Origin: Escherichia phage rV5_ev147
Length of the DNA stretch: 64,000 bases
Reading direction: 5' to 3' (one strand)
Sequence record: LR597647
The notes under the pieces were generated by a model. That model was given only the letters and a program-made list of their open reading frames with translations. It made no database searches and had not been told where the DNA came from. A program made the translations under genes and the position numbers. Positions 814 through 8,615 of this stretch are shown here, piece by piece. Positions within the stretch are counted from its first letter, which is position 1, and each line of letters begins with the position of its first letter.

Positions 814-1368
814 TTACTCCACGCTGTCAATAGCAAGACTCATTGCAATACGGTATGCCTCTTCTAATGGTAAGAGTCTCCCCCACACATCCCAACCGAC
901 ATCAAACTGCCTGCCAAACAACTGCTGTGTGGTTCCGTGAGCATGACCGAACAGTTGGACCGATCCGTGAGGCTTTCTGTTCCACTTTGCAAACTGGTAA
1001 TGGCTCATACAGATCAAATTCTTGTTGTGGCGAAGCTCGTAATAATCTACAACCTCATGACCGAACTCTTTCATAATTCTGACAGTCGTCCTTGTGTCAT
1101 GGTTACCACGAACAAGAATAATATGTCCGTTCAACATATTTAGAACATCTGGGAGCAATTTGTTAATATTCTTATCATTAGTGCACGCAATATCTCCTAA
1201 GTGAAACACAGTGTCTGCAGGTGACACAACAGAGTTCCACTTGGTGATGATCCCCGCATTCATACTGTCAAGATTGTGATCATACTGAGATCTGTGTTTT
1301 TGACATGAGTCAAACTCCATGACCCGCTGGTGGAGAAAGTGTGTGTCGCTTGTTACAAAGTATTTCAT
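814..1368 (-). CDS. Calcineurin-like metallophosphoesterase (Ser/Thr phosphatase or polynucleotide 3'-phosphatase type)
   Basis: Start refined to ATG 1368 (MKYFVTSDTHF) with GAGGA SD; motifs DTHF, GDIACTND, GNHD typical of metallophosphoesterases. Confidence 0.65.
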   Translation of the reverse strand: MKYFVTSDTHFLHQRVMEFDSCQKHRSQYDHNLDSMNAGIITKWNSVVSPADTVFHLGDIACTNDKNINKLLPDVLNMLNGHIILVRGNHDTRTTVRIMKEFGHEVVDYYELRHNKNLICMSHYQFAKWNRKPHGSVQLFGHAHGTTQQLFGRQFDVGWDVWGRLLPLEEAYRIAMSLAIDSVE

Positions 1369-1375
1369 ACATTCC

Positions 1376-1786
1376 TCATTTAAGTTTAATGCAGTTTTTA
1401 AGCTGGCGTTCCATACGATCCACAACCCTGTCTGGAACATCATGAATGCTTTTACTACCATGGCGGTTTTCAACCACGATTACGGTATAACTATACCCAT
1501 GACTGATCGCCATGTCAATATATTCTTGCACATATTTTTCTTTTGTAAATGTATTACTTACCACGATACGGTCGTATCCCATACGCATCATATCTTCTAC
1601 GTTATCTTTGCACCATTTTGCTGCAAGTGTTACTTTACTTGCATCCCAGTTGTAATTTCCATCATCGTCGTACCAGAACATGTCGTTCTCAAAATGTGGA
1701 TACAGACCTTCTAAAGATAGCGCACTTGCCAGTGTTGATTTGCCAGACCCTGGTAGACCACGCACGATATATAGCATTTTAGACAT
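1376..1786 (-). CDS. P-loop kinase, polynucleotide-kinase-like
   Basis: Start refined to ATG 1786 (GGAGGA SD); Walker A GLPGSGKST near N-terminus; stop overlaps the SD of the phosphoesterase gene. Confidence 0.5.
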   Translation of the reverse strand: MSKMLYIVRGLPGSGKSTLASALSLEGLYPHFENDMFWYDDDGNYNWDASKVTLAAKWCKDNVEDMMRMGYDRIVVSNTFTKEKYVQEYIDMAISHGYSYTVIVVENRHGSKSIHDVPDRVVDRMERQLKNCIKLK

Positions 1787-1886
1787 AGTAATCCTCCGTT
1801 TTAATTTCAACGATAGTATACCTAACTGTTTTGTTAATTTCAAGTGTTGACACTAGGTTATTTGTGTGGCAGGATAGACTGACAAA

Positions 1887-2822
1887 ATGACAAATGAGGA
1901 ACGTATGATGAAGTATTTTAATGCAGACGACCTAGTTGACAAAGGTCTTGTAACCAGCAGATATCACCCAGACCTTGGGTTAAAGATCTATAAATATGCC
2001 AGAAAAGTATTCTACAACAACTTATGGCATTTGTCTCCTCGATTACTGGAGTGCCGAGGCATTGTTGTCGGTAATGAAGGAAATGTTGTGGCATGGCCCT
2101 TTACAAAAGTGTTTAACTTGGGAGAAAATTCCACCAACCTGCCTGACAATAAGCTTGTGACGGCGGTAGAGAAAAAGAACGGATTCCTTGGTGTGGTGTC
2201 ATCTCATAAAGGTGAACTATTGTTCTCAACAACCGGGTCTCTTGATTCTCCATATTGTAACCTTGCAAAGGAAACCATCCAGGAGCAATGTGGTAATTTA
2301 GATCTTATCAAGAAGGTTATGGGCAATGAAAATATGACATTCATGTTTGAAATTTGTCACCCCTCAGATCCGCATATTGTTCAGGAAGATCATGGCGCAT
2401 ATTTGATAGGTTGCAGATATAATGATTCTGGAATAATGCTACCAGAAGCAGCTTTAGATGGGATTGCCAAATACCTTGGTGCAAAACGTCCTCACACTGT
2501 GCGTGAAATTCCGTTCAGTTATGCAAAAGAATTAGCTGCAGAAACAAGAGGTGAAGGGTATATGATTCGTAAGCCTTACTACCCTTATGATCTGCAGCTG
2601 AAGATTAAGTCTCCATACTATCTGGCACGGAAGGCCGTAATGAGGGGTAAAGCTTGGAAGATTTGGGATGATGATATCTTTAAACGTGTTGACGAAGAGT
2701 TTTACGGCATGGTAAACTTCATTCGTAACAACTACACAGAGGATGTATGGAACTGCCTCCTGGAGCAGGAACGCCGTGAGATACTCGATTACTATTTCCA
2801 CAACGAGAACTATATGCAATGA
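1887..2822 (+). CDS. Putative RNA ligase (Rnl2-like nucleotidyltransferase)
   Basis: Candidate motif I EKKNGF, motif IV EGYMIRK, motif V LKIKS; divergent from the kinase/phosphoesterase pair. Confidence 0.45.
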   Translation: MTNEERMMKYFNADDLVDKGLVTSRYHPDLGLKIYKYARKVFYNNLWHLSPRLLECRGIVVGNEGNVVAWPFTKVFNLGENSTNLPDNKLVTAVEKKNGFLGVVSSHKGELLFSTTGSLDSPYCNLAKETIQEQCGNLDLIKKVMGNENMTFMFEICHPSDPHIVQEDHGAYLIGCRYNDSGIMLPEAALDGIAKYLGAKRPHTVREIPFSYAKELAAETRGEGYMIRKPYYPYDLQLKIKSPYYLARKAVMRGKAWKIWDDDIFKRVDEEFYGMVNFIRNNYTEDVWNCLLEQERREILDYYFHNENYMQ

Positions 2823-3169
2823 AGAAGTTGATTGTGTGGCTAGATGACTTGAGAGATCCGTCAAAGTACGGGCTCCAAGACGCTGTTTGGCTAAAGAATT
2901 CCTCCGAGTTTATAGATTTTATTAACGATAATAGAAAGCTCTACAGACGCGTTTCTGAGTGGCATATGGACAACGACCTTGGAGAGGTATTCGAAGGGTA
3001 CGATTGCCTATCTATGTTGGAGGAAAAATTTGTATTTGGTAAGCCTCCTGTAGTTGACAACGTGAAGATTTTCGTGCATACTTCTAACCCATCAGCGGCT
3101 CGTAAATTCATGCTTGCAGCTGACTCGTTTAAAAAGTTTGGAATAGAGATTAAACAAAACATCTACTGA
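2819..3169 (+). CDS. Hypothetical protein, first gene of the Sir2 operon
   Basis: ORF overlaps the upstream stop (ATGA); 9 bp before the Sir2 gene; no motif recognised. Confidence 0.45.
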   Translation: MKKLIVWLDDLRDPSKYGLQDAVWLKNSSEFIDFINDNRKLYRRVSEWHMDNDLGEVFEGYDCLSMLEEKFVFGKPPVVDNVKIFVHTSNPSAARKFMLAADSFKKFGIEIKQNIY

Positions 3170-3177
3170 GGACACTT

Positions 3178-3939
3178 ATGCGACGACTGATTATTATCTC
3201 CGGTGCTGGTTTGAGCGCTGAATCTGGTATTCCCACTTTCCGATCTGGTAGCACTGCAATGTGGGAGAATTTCAGCATCGATGAGGTGTGCAACATCCAC
3301 ACCTTTGCCAAGAACTACTATAAGGTGCATGACTTTTACAATGCACGTCGTGTAGCTTTAGGCAGTGTTGAGCCTAACCTTGCACATCTTCGGATCGCTG
3401 AGTGGTATTCCCGCTGGTCTGGTCGTGTGATCAACCTTACCACCAATGTAGATGATTTGCTGGAGCGTGCTGGTGTAAAACATGAAGATATTTTACATGT
3501 CCACGGGTATTTGCCAGAAATAGTCTATGAGGACGATGAAGGAAGTGACGTCATTAAGGACATTGGATACTCTGAGGTAGACGCAGGAAAGTATACCTGG
3601 GTTAAGCCTAATGTGGTGTTCTTCGGAGAAGTAGCTCCGAAGTATACAGACATGTATGACCTGTTGACTTCTCTTACGAGCAATGATATGGTTATCCTTG
3701 TAGGGTGCTCCAACACAGTTATCAATTTTAACTGGGAGCTATTCCCTGCCTGCAATAAGGGAACCAAACTACTGATCGTTAATAAATACGACTCACAGCA
3801 TCTAGAGGAGAATGGCATTTCACGTAGTGATATTTACCAGTATGAGGATCGTGGCATCCCAGTTTGGTTTAACGGTGCGGTTGATGCCTTCTCTGATAAA
3901 ACATTCATTGAGACTGTAGAAAACTTTATGGAACTTTAA
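3178..3939 (+). CDS. SIR2-family NAD-dependent deacylase / ADP-ribosyltransferase-like protein
   Basis: Canonical sirtuin motifs GAGLSAESGIPTFRS, TTNVDDL, HVHG; no CxxC zinc module seen. Confidence 0.7.
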   Translation: MRRLIIISGAGLSAESGIPTFRSGSTAMWENFSIDEVCNIHTFAKNYYKVHDFYNARRVALGSVEPNLAHLRIAEWYSRWSGRVINLTTNVDDLLERAGVKHEDILHVHGYLPEIVYEDDEGSDVIKDIGYSEVDAGKYTWVKPNVVFFGEVAPKYTDMYDLLTSLTSNDMVILVGCSNTVINFNWELFPACNKGTKLLIVNKYDSQHLEENGISRSDIYQYEDRGIPVWFNGAVDAFSDKTFIETVENFMEL

Positions 3940-3952
3940 AAGGAGACCTTTA

Positions 3953-4666
3953 ATGCTGAATACTAAATTAATTGACAACCTGGAAAAACTATCCCAACCT
4001 GAAAACTACCTTTGGTCTGCCAACTGGGTGGAAAACTGGAACCGTGTGGCAGCTAAAGTGAAAAAATCATACACACCATTCGAATTACAGCTTAGCTTCA
4101 TTGAGGAAGAGTTCAATGAAGTTTTGGAAGAGCTGGAGAAAGGTGATGGTGGAGATCACCTGCTAAAGGAGGCCTGCGATCTTCACGTTGTCACAAGTTA
4201 TGCAGCTTATCTTGTTAATGACAATCACGAAAAGTGGTCAAACCTGTTTGATAATCCACGAGGTCTTAAGTTCAAGATCGGTGAGTTCTATGATACACTG
4301 ATCGCTGCGAAAAACACCTCTAAGCAAAGAGCATCCGCTTACCGCTTAGCAGAGTTGTCAACAGCTTTGCTGTTCCAGCTTCGCGGCGATGTGTGCGGGA
4401 TGATGCGTAAGGTTCTCAAATCGAATGACAGCAAGTTTGCACGGGTCAACCATCTACGGTATTCACACGGTGCCAGTGCAGATATGCCTGCTGAACAACT
4501 CATCGAGTTGGAGATTAAAGATCTTGAGCGACGCTTTGATGGTCGATATGAAGGTTTTGTTGCTAAGGAAGAATTCTACAACGGTAATAAAGTTATCATA
4601 TTCCTTGACAGTAAAGGTAAGATCATGAAGCCTTCGAGCTTCAAGGATGTAACAGAGTATATTTAA
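3953..4666 (+). CDS. Putative MazG-like nucleotide pyrophosphohydrolase
   Basis: EEEFNEVLEELEK...EACDLH resembles the EExxE...ExxD MazG motif; 14 bp after Sir2. Confidence 0.35.
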   Translation: MLNTKLIDNLEKLSQPENYLWSANWVENWNRVAAKVKKSYTPFELQLSFIEEEFNEVLEELEKGDGGDHLLKEACDLHVVTSYAAYLVNDNHEKWSNLFDNPRGLKFKIGEFYDTLIAAKNTSKQRASAYRLAELSTALLFQLRGDVCGMMRKVLKSNDSKFARVNHLRYSHGASADMPAEQLIELEIKDLERRFDGRYEGFVAKEEFYNGNKVIIFLDSKGKIMKPSSFKDVTEYI

Positions 4667-4672
4667 CAACAT

Positions 4673-4698
4673 AGCCGGGATTACCCGGCTTTACTTGT
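4673..4698 (+). terminator. Rho-independent terminator after the Sir2 operon
   Basis: AGCCGGG-atta-CCCGGCT stem-loop followed by TTTACTTGTT. Confidence 0.5.
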
Positions 4699-4699
4699 T

Positions 4700-5038
4700 G
4701 TGGAAAGTATGCAAGTGAGGCAGATAGTTATGTACAAGCACTCTAGAGATCTTGAAAACGATGCTGTGTTTGGGGATCAGATGAAAGAGTTGGTTAAACT
4801 CATAGGCAGGATAGAGGATAAGTTTGACACTAAGATCTACATCGACAGCAAAGTATTCAACCACAAAATATGGACAAATCTGTGTGTTGGACTACATGGA
4901 GATAAAGATGCGGTAAATTTAGTTGTAATTAAGTTCATAGTGTGGCAGAATAAAACTATAAATTATTACGATCCACATCTGCTTGTTTACCCGATAAAAG
5001 ACCTATTAGATAAGGAGGACTGCAATGCCGTTATTTAA
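4700..5038 (+). CDS. Hypothetical protein
   Basis: ORF in dense co-directional array; start not refined. Confidence 0.4.
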   Translation: MESMQVRQIVMYKHSRDLENDAVFGDQMKELVKLIGRIEDKFDTKIYIDSKVFNHKIWTNLCVGLHGDKDAVNLVVIKFIVWQNKTINYYDPHLLVYPIKDLLDKEDCNAVI

Positions 5039-5294
5039 TCTTGCTAAACCTGTAGAAGCACACCAGTTTGACGGAAGCTCTTCATCAGTATCTGATCTGC
5101 AACGGTGGATTGATACAGGTGTGTTTACATCGTCACCTGTTCGGACCAGAGATCTTCGTCGTATGTGTGAGCTTGTAGAGCCGTTTGGTAACCTAGTCTT
5201 GCACCAGGGTGATTGGCTTGTTGATTTTATGGGGGACTGGTTGGTAATGAGTAAAGAAGAGATGTTTAAAATTTTTAAGGAAGAGGTAGAGTAA
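5025..5294 (+). CDS. Hypothetical protein
   Basis: ORF with GGAGGA-like SD upstream; no motif recognised. Confidence 0.4.
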   Translation: MPLFNLAKPVEAHQFDGSSSSVSDLQRWIDTGVFTSSPVRTRDLRRMCELVEPFGNLVLHQGDWLVDFMGDWLVMSKEEMFKIFKEEVE

Positions 5295-6577
5295 TGCATC
5301 AAATCAAAACAACACTGTACGCACTGAACAAAGATGGCAGCTACCAACAGTGGAAAGTATTCACGGATGGTGATAAGGTTATCGTAGAGTTTGGCAAGCT
5401 TGATGGTAAACTGCAATACAAAGAGACGATCTGCACACCTAAGAACGTGGGTCGCGCCAATGAGACTACAGCTGAGCAACAGGCCGAGCTGGAAGCGATC
5501 AGTAAGTGGGAAAAACAGGTCCGACTAGGGTACGTGGAGAGTATGGAAGATTGTGAGCAAGGTGTTGATCTTTTACCAATGTTAGTGCATGACTACCTGA
5601 AGCGTGGCAAGGCACTTAAATTACCTTGCTGGATCTTGCGTAAGTTAGATGGCCTTCGTCTACTTGTTGTTTTCCAGAATGGTGAGCCTAAATTTATTTC
5701 CCGTGGTAATAAGTCCTACCCTATTCAAGGAAAGCTTCTGGAGCAACTTCGCTCTTTCCACCTAACCACCGGGATTAAACAGCTCGACGGAGAGCTCTAT
5801 ATTCATGGTCTTCCTCTGCAGAAAATAGTGTCTCTTGCTAAACGGTGGCGCACACAGGAAGAAATTCAGGCCGAGATCGATAAAGACTACAAGGCAGATA
5901 AAAAACGCCGTCAGGCTGCGATTAAGGCAGGTTTAGCAACATACAAAAACTTCAACAAGATGGACATTCCTGTTGATGTTGAGCCTGTTCGTGATGATTT
6001 GCGTTACGGAGGGTACTGCAGCTACGACTTAGAGTATCATATTTTCGATATTCCTAGCGATAAGGTGTGGTGGGATCCTGAAACAGAGTCTGGACGCTGT
6101 AAGGATCTTATGGAGGCAAATGGTGCTATTGCTTCTTTGATGCTTGATCATATTAAGGTTGTTGATGCAGAGCTTGCATACACAGTTGATCGGTGCGAAG
6201 AGTCTGTTGGTATATTTATGTCTGAGGGATATGAAGGTACCATTATGCGTAACTTCTGTGGTAAATATGAGTATGGTCAGCGAACATCTGAAGCATTGAA
6301 ATGGAAAAAGTTCAACGACGCAGAGGTGAAAGTTATTGACGTTGAGAAAGATAAGAATGATGAAGGTGTTCTTATCTGTGTTGACAAGGAAGGTGTTGTT
6401 GTTAAAATGAAGATGAAAGGCACGCACGAGGAGCGTAGCTATGACAGGATGCAGGAAATGATCGGCAAGTTTGTCACCTTCAAATATCAAGCAAGGACAG
6501 AAGACAACAACTACCAATTCCCTGTCGGTATCTGCGTCCGAAATGTTAACCCAGACACTTGGGAGGTGCTGGAATGA
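5294..6577 (+). CDS. ATP-dependent DNA ligase
   Basis: Motif I KLDGLR, motif IV-like EGTIMRN, motif V-like KWKKF; ATGA overlap with upstream ORF. Confidence 0.55.
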   Translation: MHQIKTTLYALNKDGSYQQWKVFTDGDKVIVEFGKLDGKLQYKETICTPKNVGRANETTAEQQAELEAISKWEKQVRLGYVESMEDCEQGVDLLPMLVHDYLKRGKALKLPCWILRKLDGLRLLVVFQNGEPKFISRGNKSYPIQGKLLEQLRSFHLTTGIKQLDGELYIHGLPLQKIVSLAKRWRTQEEIQAEIDKDYKADKKRRQAAIKAGLATYKNFNKMDIPVDVEPVRDDLRYGGYCSYDLEYHIFDIPSDKVWWDPETESGRCKDLMEANGAIASLMLDHIKVVDAELAYTVDRCEESVGIFMSEGYEGTIMRNFCGKYEYGQRTSEALKWKKFNDAEVKVIDVEKDKNDEGVLICVDKEGVVVKMKMKGTHEERSYDRMQEMIGKFVTFKYQARTEDNNYQFPVGICVRNVNPDTWEVLE

Positions 6578-6701: not shown

Positions 6702-7190
6702 ATGAAACTTGATAAAAATGTTCAACGAAAAGCTTTCTTGGATATGATCGCATATTCGGAAGGCACAGATAATGGTAGACAACCTACCAAGGATCGGGGG
6801 TACGATGTCATAGTCGGAGGCAAGCTGTTCAGCGATTACAGCAAGCATCCCGGTGTTTACGTTAAGCTAAATGCTAAGCTTACCTCCTCCGCTGCTGGGC
6901 GTTACCAGGTTTTGGAGAAGTTTGCTAAACACTACATGAAACAGTTAGGATTACCAGATTTTGGCCCTGACAGTCAGGACAAGATTGCGTTGCAACTGAT
7001 CCGTGAGTGCAAGGCTCTCGCCGACATTGATGAAGGGCGTATTCATCAGGCCATTTATAAATGCCGCAGCCGCTGGGCAAGCTTCCCACCACCGCCAGGG
7101 GCTGGAAAGCTGTACAATCAGCGAGCAGAAAGTATAGACAAGATGCTGGAGATCTTTAAGAAGGCAGGTGGAGTTGTTACAGATGAGTAA
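6702..7190 (+). CDS. Lysozyme, lambda R-type lytic transglycosylase
   Basis: QRKAFLDMIAYSEGTDNGRQPTKDRGYDVIVGG and C-terminal KEAGG closely match lambda R as recalled. Confidence 0.85.
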   Translation: MKLDKNVQRKAFLDMIAYSEGTDNGRQPTKDRGYDVIVGGKLFSDYSKHPGVYVKLNAKLTSSAAGRYQVLEKFAKHYMKQLGLPDFGPDSQDKIALQLIRECKALADIDEGRIHQAIYKCRSRWASFPPPPGAGKLYNQRAESIDKMLEIFKKAGGVVTDE

Positions 7191-7866
7191 CGGGATTGAC
7201 TGGTGGAGTGTCTTTAGATACGATACAGGCACTGGAAGGTTGTTTTGGAAGTCCCCACCAAAAAACAAACCTCAACTGATGGGAAAGGAGGCTGGATGTA
7301 CTAACATGGACGGGTACAGGGATATAATCTATCGCGGCGTGCATTACTACAGGCATAGATTGGTGTGGGAGATGCATTATGGACCAATTCCAGAAGGGTA
7401 CGAAGTTGATCACATAAAGCCACTTTTCTATTCCGATGGTGTTGCTGATGACAGGATAGAAAACCTACAACTGTTAACACCAGAAGAAAACGCAAAAAAG
7501 GCGGCAGATGACGGATGCCTGGCACGCAAGATACCTAAATCTAACACTGGACACTTGGGTGTATATTTTCATGCTAGAACTGGAAGGTATGCTGCTTTTG
7601 GTAAGGTAGGTCATTACTATAAGAAAGACCTAGGAGAATACGATACCTTAGAAGAGGCCCTTGCTGCTCAAAAGTCTTTTGAAAGTGGCACGTTTGTCAG
7701 GGAATATCGTGGACAGCCTTTAGGGAGGGATAAATCTAGAGGTGTCAGATTTGAAGCAGATAGGGGCAAATGGAAAGTAACTTTCAGAGGAAAAACGCTA
7801 GGCAGGTTTGACACCAAAGAGTCTGCTGAAGCGTGTTACGCAAAGGCTCTTGCTGAAAGATTGTAA
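7183..7866 (+). CDS. HNH homing endonuclease with AP2-like DNA-binding domain
   Basis: Start refined to ATG 7183; HNH region GYEVDHIKPL...ENLQLLTPEEN; overlaps the lysozyme stop. Confidence 0.6.
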   Translation: MSNGIDWWSVFRYDTGTGRLFWKSPPKNKPQLMGKEAGCTNMDGYRDIIYRGVHYYRHRLVWEMHYGPIPEGYEVDHIKPLFYSDGVADDRIENLQLLTPEENAKKAADDGCLARKIPKSNTGHLGVYFHARTGRYAAFGKVGHYYKKDLGEYDTLEEALAAQKSFESGTFVREYRGQPLGRDKSRGVRFEADRGKWKVTFRGKTLGRFDTKESAEACYAKALAERL

Positions 7867-7934
7867 CAGTATCATTGACATGACCACACGGACGTGGTAT
7901 TGTTACCTCATACAATGTTAGGGAGGGTTTAACC

Positions 7935-8141
7935 ATGAAAGATTTTCTGTTGGCAATTTTGTTCATGGCAGCATGTCTGGCCTGTGGTGTCGTGTTTGCA
8001 GGTGAAACAGCGTATCTTGTCGATGTATATCGGGACAATGGTAAACGTATTTGCCTTTATGAGACAAGCCAAGGTGAGCTCTACGAGCTTGTGAAACAAG
8101 GCGAGGCAGGTTCCTGCCCTCGCACCCATTTCTTTGAATAA
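7935..8141 (+). CDS. Small secreted protein or lipoprotein
   Basis: N-terminal hydrophobic signal MKDFLLAILFMAACLACGVVFA with Cys near the cleavage region; GGAGGG SD. Confidence 0.45.
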   Translation: MKDFLLAILFMAACLACGVVFAGETAYLVDVYRDNGKRICLYETSQGELYELVKQGEAGSCPRTHFFE

Positions 8142-8150
8142 GGGGGATAC

Positions 8151-8615
8151 GTGGAAGACGGACGTTTAATGAAGTCTGAACGCAGGCTTATTGTGCAACT
8201 GATCCCAGAAACAGCTTGGTATAATAACCTCCGAAACGCTGTAAAGAAGAGTGAGTGGGATAAGATCCGCAAGAAGTGCTATAGAGAAGCCAACTACACC
8301 TGTGAGGTGTGCGGCGGTAAAGGCAGCAAACACCCAGTGGAGTGTCATGAACTTTACACTTTCGAAGAGGGAGTGATCCGGCTTGTCGGACTGATAGCGT
8401 TGTGCCCAGATTGTCACACATCTGTGCATCCTGGGTTAGCAAATATCCGTGGAAAGTATGCTCAGGCAGTTAGTCAGTTGGCTAAGGTGAATAAGATCAC
8501 CAAGGGTATGGCAGAGGCGTATTACCGAGACTGCTTTGCAGAGTGGCGTGAGCTTAGTAAAGTTCCAGAATGGAAGACTGACTTTTCGTGGATAGAGGGT
8601 TACCTTGATGGCTAA
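8151..8615 (+). CDS. Putative HNH-type zinc-finger nuclease
   Basis: CEVCGG...HPVECHEL...CPDCH arrangement of Cys/His pairs. Confidence 0.35.
   Translation: MEDGRLMKSERRLIVQLIPETAWYNNLRNAVKKSEWDKIRKKCYREANYTCEVCGGKGSKHPVECHELYTFEEGVIRLVGLIALCPDCHTSVHPGLANIRGKYAQAVSQLAKVNKITKGMAEAYYRDCFAEWRELSKVPEWKTDFSWIEGYLDG

Follow-up and report, generated by a model that had tools for sequence, protein, structure and literature searches.

In phage T4, repair of tRNAs by Pnkp and Rnl1 counters the anticodon nuclease PrrC, and a kinase, a phosphoesterase and an RNA ligase together form the standard "heal and seal" set of RNA repair. Pathways of the Tpt1 type open a cyclic phosphate to a 2'-phosphate, ligate, remove the 2'-phosphate at the expense of NAD+ and degrade the by-product with a cyclic phosphodiesterase and a pyrophosphatase, employing ART-fold Tpt1, a 2H phosphoesterase and a Nudix protein. 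A third kind of system was predicted computationally as the type 2 sirtuin RNA-repair neighbourhood, with Escherichia phage V5 and Proteus phage Mydo as prototypes (Iyer, Burroughs, Anantharaman and Aravind 2022, Viruses 14:1977, PMC9503650, section 3.7.3); its sirtuin is predicted to remove RNA 2'-phosphates like KptA/Tpt1, and the associated enzymes are proposed to resolve a cyclic phosphate or to process the resulting ADP-ribose cyclic phosphate. The 64,000-nucleotide stretch of Escherichia phage rV5_ev147 analysed here (record LR597647; hereafter the window) contains all six components of this neighbourhood (sirtuin, T4-like ligase, cREC, kinase, MazG and calcineurin-like phosphoesterase) within positions 814-4666, and the locus, which agrees with it in components and phage group, is a member. 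Three consecutive genes at 2819-4666, encoding a cREC protein (gene 1), a zinc-less sirtuin (gene 2) and a MazG-like protein (gene 3), may form the downstream end of a system that repairs RNA, most likely tRNA, as proposed in PMC9503650, with a probability of about one half. The neighbourhood and the hypothesis are already in print with this phage group as a prototype; what is added here is the translational coupling of gene 1 to the RNA ligase, structural support for receiver and dimeric-dUTPase-like folds, the clade-wide loss of zinc-binding cysteines from the sirtuin, and the tracking of the DNA ligase by the MazG-like gene.

Sequence comparison assigns the window to an rV5-like lytic coliphage of the Vequintavirus group: Escherichia phage rV5_ev156 is 100% identical over window bases 1800-5300, and the three-gene block is found at no less than 90% nucleotide identity in 120 phage records, nearly all of Vequintavirus. 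Because of this conservation and the family-level matches of all three proteins, the block is not a product of chance. The features of the locus are as follows.

814-1368, minus strand: calcineurin-like metallophosphoesterase (Pfam Metallophos_2 and Metallophos above cut-off; PHROG 547 "phosphoesterase", E 5.6e-52)
1376-1786, minus strand: P-loop kinase of 136 amino acids, AAA_33, polynucleotide-kinase-like (Pfam AAA_33, E 2.4e-10; PHROG 505 "polynucleotide kinase", E 1.1e-9)
1887-2822, plus strand: T4 Rnl1-like ATP-dependent RNA ligase (Pfam RNA_lig_T4_1, E 6.3e-15; PHROG 562, E 7.7e-67)
2819-3169, plus strand: gene 1, cREC protein of 116 amino acids (Pfam cREC_REC, PF20274)
3178-3939, plus strand: gene 2, zinc-less sirtuin of 253 amino acids (Pfam SIR2, E 3e-27; PHROG 2162, E 9e-110)
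3953-4666, plus strand: gene 3, apparent MazG-like all-alpha nucleoside triphosphate (NTP) pyrophosphohydrolase of 237 amino acids (MazG/HisE/dimeric-dUTPase superfamily)
4673-4698, plus strand: intrinsic terminator (consensus scan, RNA folding, ARNold at the homologous site)
5294-6577, plus strand: ATP-dependent DNA ligase of the next transcription unit (Pfam DNA_ligase_A_M and DNA_ligase_OB_2)

An earlier reading made from the letters alone (the sequence-only reading) had described genes 1 to 3 as an operon starting at 2819, with spacers of 9-14 bp and a clear terminator at 4673-4698. The feature is real and well conserved, but that reading set its bounds wrongly. All three plus-strand open reading frames (ORFs) lie where it had placed them (2819-3169, 3178-3939 and 3953-4666), but the gaps between them are 8 nucleotides (genes 1-2) and 13 nucleotides (genes 2-3), and the stop codon TGA of the RNA ligase overlaps the ATG of gene 1 (caATGAag, with ATGA at 2819-2822), which rules out a closed, self-sufficient three-gene operon. 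Each gap is preceded by a ribosome-binding site of the form GAGGA or AAGGAG, and no terminator-like site was found on the plus strand from 1887 to 4673. The terminator was correctly recognised: a stem-loop at 4673-4690 (stem of 7 bp, of which 6 are G-C, and a loop of 4 nucleotides) is followed by the T-rich tail TTTACTTGTTG, the region folds at -17.6 kcal/mol (z = -3.8 against shuffles), and in phage Gotham the corresponding site carries an ARNold terminator annotation. The transcription unit is therefore one of four genes, Rnl1-cREC-Sir2-MazG-like, closed by the terminator at 4673-4698, and the kinase and metallophosphoesterase genes diverge from the same intergenic region. The RNA ligase possibly starts at ATG 1905, which follows a GAGGA and is the start annotated in phage Gotham, whereas ATG 1887 lacks one. 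A search for a sigma-70 promoter of the plus-strand unit gave no convincing candidate; the GAGGA here is a ribosome-binding site, and a perfect TTGACA at 1847-1852, 35 nucleotides upstream of the ligase ORF, has no acceptable -10 element at a distance of 16-18 nucleotides.

Gene 2 aligns to 178 of the 180 positions of Pfam SIR2 (PF02146) and scores 96.2 bits, the cut-off being 24 (E 3e-27), which bears out the sirtuin assignment made from the motifs GAGLSAESGIPTFRS, TTNVDDL and HVHG, all of which are present. Among solved structures its closest relatives are SIRT5 and CobB, both class III sirtuins (E ~2e-21), with which it shares the Rossmann NAD+-binding motifs, the catalytic histidine, the N/D pair and Y-x-x-R, a pair by which class III enzymes accommodate acidic acyl groups. 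Residues G9-A10-G11, S16-G17, F21-R22, Y54, R57-R58, N90, D92 and H109-G110 do not vary among 23 homologues; H109 aligns with the catalytic histidine of SIRT5, and the Y-x-x-R pair is among the invariant positions. CobB and SIRT5 possess a Cys4 zinc module, formed in sirtuins by two CxxC pairs that lie between HG and the FGE loop, whereas gene 2, as the sequence-only reading had noted, has no CxxC module: its cysteines are at positions 38, 177 and 192 only, with none between residues 110 and 176, and the region that spans ~48 residues in SIRT5 is reduced to ~23 cysteine-free residues. The cysteine pairs between the HG and KPNV motifs are missing likewise from the 23 closer homologues and from six divergent phage lineages (rV5-like, Mydovirus, T5-like, Justusliebigvirus, KVP40 and a jumbo phage). 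In canonical sirtuins the zinc module helps to form the peptide cleft, and its loss in every phage lineage compared suggests a changed substrate. On alignment, gene 2 belongs to a large phage-only clade of sirtuins, with homologues in 1010 phage records, that retains all the catalytic motifs and lacks the zinc-binding cysteines; unlike CobB and SIRT5, the clade is phage-restricted and occurs in a nucleic-acid-processing context. The protein is predicted to be an NAD+-dependent remover of RNA 2'-phosphates that may work like Tpt1. It is not a member of the Tpt1/KptA family itself (ART fold, Pfam PTS_2-RNA), its only Pfam match being SIR2. Sir2 NADases of the defence type (DSR, ThsA, Sir2-HerA, pAgo-Sir2) were also considered and rejected: gene 2 matches no family among the PADLOC defence models at E <= 1e-3.

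Gene 1, in which the sequence-only reading saw no recognisable motif, matches Pfam cREC_REC (PF20274; E 4.5e-15), its 56.5 bits being twice the gathering cut-off of 27. In a fold search it comes out as a receiver-like (beta-alpha)5 fold, strands 1 and 3 of which end in conserved aspartates; these belong to an acidic pocket at the site of the receiver phospho-acceptor, made up of D9/D10 after strand 1 and D51/D53 after strand 3, at which the conserved segment H87-T88-S89-N90-P91 following strand 4 is also located. Compared with PDB chains, alone and as a profile, gene 1 finds no solved receiver domain by sequence. It is a standalone domain of 116 residues without an output domain and with no histidine kinase among the neighbours examined; for these reasons, together with the outcome of the PDB profile search, a role as the receiver of a two-component response regulator was discarded. 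The activity predicted for gene 1 is that of a cyclic-phosphate phosphoesterase. PMC7824862 defined the cREC domain and originally proposed, besides RNA ends, cyclic ADP-ribose or 2',3'-cyclic nucleotides as its substrates; in PMC9503650 the domain is described as still experimentally uncharacterised. In phages it is encoded either beside Rnl1, the kinase and Sir2 or beside Sir2 and a Nudix protein. Among the bacterial relatives, three Christiangramia genomes (L024, L025 and L027 of the loci fetched for comparison) share the order DUF2779, AAA ATPase, cREC, the last having 162 amino acids with an N-terminal extension; the gene adjoins Peptidase_M50 in a metagenome-assembled genome of Myxococcota, and FGE-sulfatase and Peptidase_C1 in one of Bacteroidales. 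These bacterial loci are at odds with the statement that cREC is confined to RNA-repair and ADP-ribose contexts.

The RNA ligase scores 56.1 bits against Pfam RNA_lig_T4_1 (cut-off 28.3) and 39.3 bits against the T4 RnlA equivalog model (cut-off 242), and so is not an equivalog of RnlA. The kinase, whose counterpart in phage Gotham bears the annotation "3'-phosphatase, 5'-polynucleotide kinase", is a candidate RNA 5'-OH kinase, and the metallophosphoesterase is a candidate enzyme for healing 2',3'-cyclic or 3'-phosphate ends. The open frame of the kinase extends to 1843; that of the metallophosphoesterase extends to 1473, its start at 1368 being taken from homologous annotation (L001 and L002). 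As in T4, a ligase of the Rnl1 family is thus accompanied by a 5'-kinase and a phosphoesterase in a large lytic coliphage, and the presumed purpose is the same, the resealing of tRNAs cut by host defences. The T4 system differs in that Pnkp is bifunctional, with a HAD phosphatase domain, whereas here a separate 136-residue kinase and a calcineurin-like metallophosphoesterase would share the work, and in lacking any partner of the cREC, sirtuin or MazG-like kind. A cluster of tRNA genes (Met, Thr, Ser and Arg; L001 1227-2078) lies shortly before the first position of the window, with ~3-4 kb between it and the phosphoesterase and kinase genes; the phage thus has its predicted RNA-repair genes next to tRNA genes of its own.

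Conservation of the neighbourhood was read by tblastn on the fetched loci. The order in Vequintavirus is phosphoesterase and kinase on the opposite strand, then Rnl1-cREC-Sir2-MazG-like-orf112-orf89-DNA ligase; loci of the Mydovirus/Seunavirus type have orf112-phosphoesterase...Rnl1-cREC-kinase-Sir2-DNA ligase-orf89...MazG-like on one strand, so that in Mydovirus the kinase lies between cREC and Sir2 on their strand; and loci of the Phapecoctavirus type have cREC-phosphoesterase-Rnl1-kinase...DNA ligase-MazG-like, with Sir2 elsewhere in the genome. Clustering thus persists across these three types while gene order and strand change. The 4-nucleotide overlap of Rnl1 and cREC is kept in Mydovirus KNP2. 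In some Vequintaviruses (L032, and L033 at 7384-7992) an additional ORF of 202 amino acids, with no Pfam match, is situated between Rnl1 and cREC, and the ATGA overlap is therefore not universal.

Linkages outside the rV5-related phages are more telling than synteny within that group. In the T5-like phage fp01 an orthologous sirtuin is followed by HAD_SAK_2, a "Swiss Army Knife RNA repair" phosphatase. The jumbo phage JP4 (370 kb) has the succession Sir2, Nudt16-like Nudix, cREC and PIN-PhoH, with this RNase-type protein encoded 360 bp downstream of the Sir2-Nudix-cREC trio. The JP4 neighbourhood (type 1 of PMC9503650) resembles that of the window in that its sirtuin comes from the same zinc-less clade (39% identity), its cREC belongs to the same family and a pyrophosphohydrolase is part of the cluster; it differs in having the Nudix protein instead of the MazG-like one, in the presence of PIN-PhoH, and in having no RNA ligase, kinase or metallophosphoesterase within 4 kb. 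The trio of sirtuin, cREC and pyrophosphohydrolase thus recurs in JP4 with a non-homologous pyrophosphohydrolase, and the sirtuin meets RNA-end-processing enzymes in three separate phage lineages. Two tandem DUF7415 proteins directly follow the Sir2/HAD_SAK_2 pair in fp01 (L003 6502-7332). A 135-kb phage contig (L034 8001-16696) carries, within 9 kb, a zinc-less sirtuin, a DNA ligase, a canonical MazG of 151 amino acids (PF03819), Band_7/SPFH and NADAR, and neither RNA ligase nor cREC was found at that locus. Band_7 and NADAR are said to be discussed in papers of the Aravind laboratory as components of RNA repair or ADP-ribose processing.

RNA repair is favoured because gene 1 is translationally coupled to the RNA ligase, because the kinase and metallophosphoesterase are neighbours, because the sirtuin stands beside RNA end-healing enzymes in two unrelated phage groups, and because PADLOC returned no match. 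The substrates, the order and every reaction step of the scheme that follows are conjectural. Anti-phage ribonucleases of the host would cut tRNAs or other RNAs, leaving 2',3'-cyclic phosphate and 5'-OH ends; the kinase would phosphorylate the 5' end, cREC and/or the metallophosphoesterase would open the cyclic phosphate, and the Rnl1-like ligase would seal the break. The sirtuin would then use NAD+ to strip off the leftover 2'-phosphate in the manner of Tpt1/KptA, with a phosphate oxygen attacking C1'' of NAD+, after which cREC may open the ADP-ribose cyclic-phosphate by-product and the pyrophosphohydrolase (MazG-like here, Nudix in jumbo phages) may split the diphosphate, the part of the MazG-like protein being the least certain step. 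The chemistry seems plausible because both sirtuin steps, carried out on an acyl oxygen, have direct counterparts in the two formally identical steps of Tpt1, in which a nucleophilic oxygen attacks C1' of NAD+ and a histidine-activated ribose 2'-OH then attacks in turn (PMC11417386). The logic proposed is that of the Tpt1-type pathway with other folds in its place (a sirtuin, a receiver fold and an all-alpha MazG-like protein instead of Tpt1, a 2H phosphoesterase and Nudix), so the locus may work like that pathway but is not a member of those families.

Several observations weigh against this interpretation. Its main logical weakness is that the kinase, the metallophosphoesterase and Rnl1 might suffice to heal and seal by themselves, as extrapolated from the Pnkp/Rnl1 system of T4 and the Pnkp system of Clostridium thermocellum, leaving no 2'-phosphate for the sirtuin to remove. 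E. coli itself, moreover, encodes KptA. The synteny is largely within related phage subfamilies and may reflect descent, not selection; in phages of the Phapecoctavirus/Justusliebigvirus type Sir2 is ~30 kb from the cREC/ligase block; and in a lineage related to rV5-like phages, known from two metagenomic contigs (L030, 131 kb, and L031, 82 kb), a DNA ligase (69% identical), a 166-residue ORF, the MazG-like gene (53%) and the phosphoesterase (65%) occur together, with Rnl1, cREC, Sir2 and kinase all missing within 7 kb, which looks like natural loss or absence of the Rnl1-cREC-Sir2-kinase cassette. Five bacterial cREC loci (L023-L027) are outside RNA-repair contexts, with no histidine kinase seen there either. 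The first 111 residues of gene 2 show ~45% identity to SIRT5, and the Y-x-x-R pair is kept, so protein deacylation is possible. The literature on phage sirtuins, cREC and rV5 transcription yielded no experimental paper, the paper on NARP3 dealing with different genes.

The most serious competing explanation bears on gene 3 alone and leaves room for RNA repair by genes 1 and 2. The EExxE...ExxD signature on which the sequence-only reading had based its MazG-like assignment is present (E51-E52-E53-x-x-E56 and E73-x-x-D76), but the protein's own best Pfam score, against PRA-PH (PF01503), is 13.7 bits, below the gathering cut-off of 21.3 (E 0.084). Membership of the MazG superfamily emerged from the family as a whole: an exhaustive profile search gave 166 cluster representatives, and of 54 diverse members 34 match PRA-PH and 11 match MazG (PF03819) at E <= 0.01. 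In these 54 members N30, E53, D76, N158, K161, K223 and K226 are invariant, and the signature residues E52, E53, E56 and D76 are invariant or nearly so. Neither gene 3 alone nor a 12-sequence profile matched any PDB chain, and a 54-sequence profile gave only weak matches, to HisE and MazG structures over the EExxE segment. The modelled fold, based on the four-helix bundle of the superfamily, resembles dimeric dUTPases, MazG and HisE; a Foldseek search of the model against the PDB returned nothing at E <= 1e-3, and usable TM-scores came from dimeric dUTPases only. A conserved C-terminal extension with the motif KGKIMKP, whose invariant K223/K226-P227 lie on a beta-hairpin, sets gene 3 apart from dimeric dUTPases, MazG and HisE, as do its sub-threshold Pfam score and the lack of a sequence match to a solved structure. 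Judging by conserved residues and modelled fold, gene 3 appears to encode an active enzyme of the all-alpha NTP pyrophosphohydrolases, the superfamily of dimeric dUTPases, MazG and HisE (Moroz et al. 2005).

Such an enzyme could be one of nucleotide-pool house-cleaning, acting on dUTP/dNTPs or an alarmone in connection with the DNA ligase and replication, and in Vequintavirus simply sharing the Sir2 transcript. The MazG-like gene is ~0.2-1.7 kb from an ATP-dependent DNA ligase in every lineage examined (Vequintavirus, loci of the Mydovirus/Seunavirus type, L013, L015-L017 and L030/L031) and is directly beside Sir2 in Vequintavirus only; because it follows the DNA ligase more faithfully than it follows Sir2, its membership of the RNA-repair module is the weakest. 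The two metagenomic contigs, where it accompanies the ligase and phosphoesterase and is parted from Rnl1, cREC, Sir2 and kinase, point the same way, as does the 135-kb contig, where a different, canonical MazG takes the same post-ligase position. Yet that contig keeps Sir2 within 4 kb of its MazG, the Nudix pyrophosphatase between Sir2 and cREC in JP4 makes a pyrophosphatase a partner that recurs as a non-homologous enzyme, and the MazG enzyme is counted among the components of the neighbourhood in PMC9503650. House-cleaning is quite possibly the function of gene 3, though short of probable.

It is unlikely that gene 2 is an ordinary CobB-like protein lysine deacylase that modifies host or phage proteins for host takeover, with neighbours unrelated to it. 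The kinship with SIRT5 and CobB, the invariance of the catalytic residues and of the class III Y-x-x-R pair, and the neighbours of Sir2 in KVP40 and muut, which are without RNA-repair domains, are all to be expected of a deacylase, and the best NCBIfam models for gene 2 are called "NAD-dependent protein deacylase". The scores against those models, however, are all far under cut-off (at best 122.7 bits against 243, for NF001753; 103.5 against 320 for CobB), the zinc module is missing in every phage lineage compared, and adjacency to cREC, Rnl1, HAD_SAK_2 or Nudix recurs in three separate phage groups. The weakest account, that of the sequence-only reading, in which cREC, Sir2 and the pyrophosphatase manipulate NAD+ or destroy immune signals (Thoeris, CBASS, type III CRISPR) with no part in RNA repair, could draw on the cyclic ADP-ribose and 2',3'-cyclic nucleotides first proposed for cREC (PMC7824862), on the cleavage of ADP-ribose-type diphosphates, which is established biochemistry for Nudix and may extend to the MazG-like protein, and on the JP4 trio, which has no RNA ligase within 4 kb, but is very improbable, as the sirtuin consumes NAD+ and would deepen its depletion, PADLOC has no model that any of the three proteins matches, rV5-like phages couple the translation of cREC to that of an RNA ligase, the partner of the sirtuin in T5-like phages is an RNA-end phosphatase, and the RNase-type PIN-PhoH lies just downstream of the trio in JP4. 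A role in counter-defence, which that reading also suggested, is plausible; manipulation of NAD+ or nucleotide signals is not indicated by a context of RNA ligase coupling, kinase and metallophosphoesterase.

Within the RNA-repair interpretation, a bolder version can be put forward tentatively, as a conjecture rather doubtful in its entirety: the zinc-less sirtuin would be a true RNA 2'-phosphotransferase, a non-homologous replacement for Tpt1 and the first enzyme of sirtuin fold with a demonstrated action on RNA; cREC would stand for a novel class of cyclic phosphodiesterases with aspartyl-phosphate chemistry; and together with a pyrophosphatase they would constitute a self-contained cassette for removing 2'-phosphates and clearing the by-product, bolted onto varied sets of ligases and phosphatases. 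If RNA repair is the function, a part in mending RNA would be added to sirtuins, which usually count as protein deacylases, and receiver domains would be credited with enzymatic work beyond two-component signalling. There would also be an explanation of how rV5-like phages (a large, therapeutically used group of coliphages) and, by way of the sirtuin clade common to them, T5-like phages and jumbo phages could survive host defences that cut tRNAs.

Searches for Rfam RNA families and ARAGORN tRNAs over the whole window found none, and base composition gave no sign of foreign insertion. Two small ORFs, 4700-5038 and 5025-5294 (PHROG 7684 and 14585), occupy the interval between the terminator and the DNA ligase and travel with the block in other lineages; both are present in L030 and L031, and the first moves upstream of the phosphoesterase in loci of the Mydovirus type. 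Farther downstream, beyond a lysozyme-like gene (6702-7190), ORFs 7168-7866 and 8151-8615 are annotated as HNH endonucleases in a homologous record and are probably homing endonuclease insertions. Some 18-25 GenBank records named "Campylobacter phage" (MG0656xx, with Campylobacter jejuni as host) are 94-100% identical to rV5-like coliphages in this region, suggesting that they are mislabelled or contaminated.

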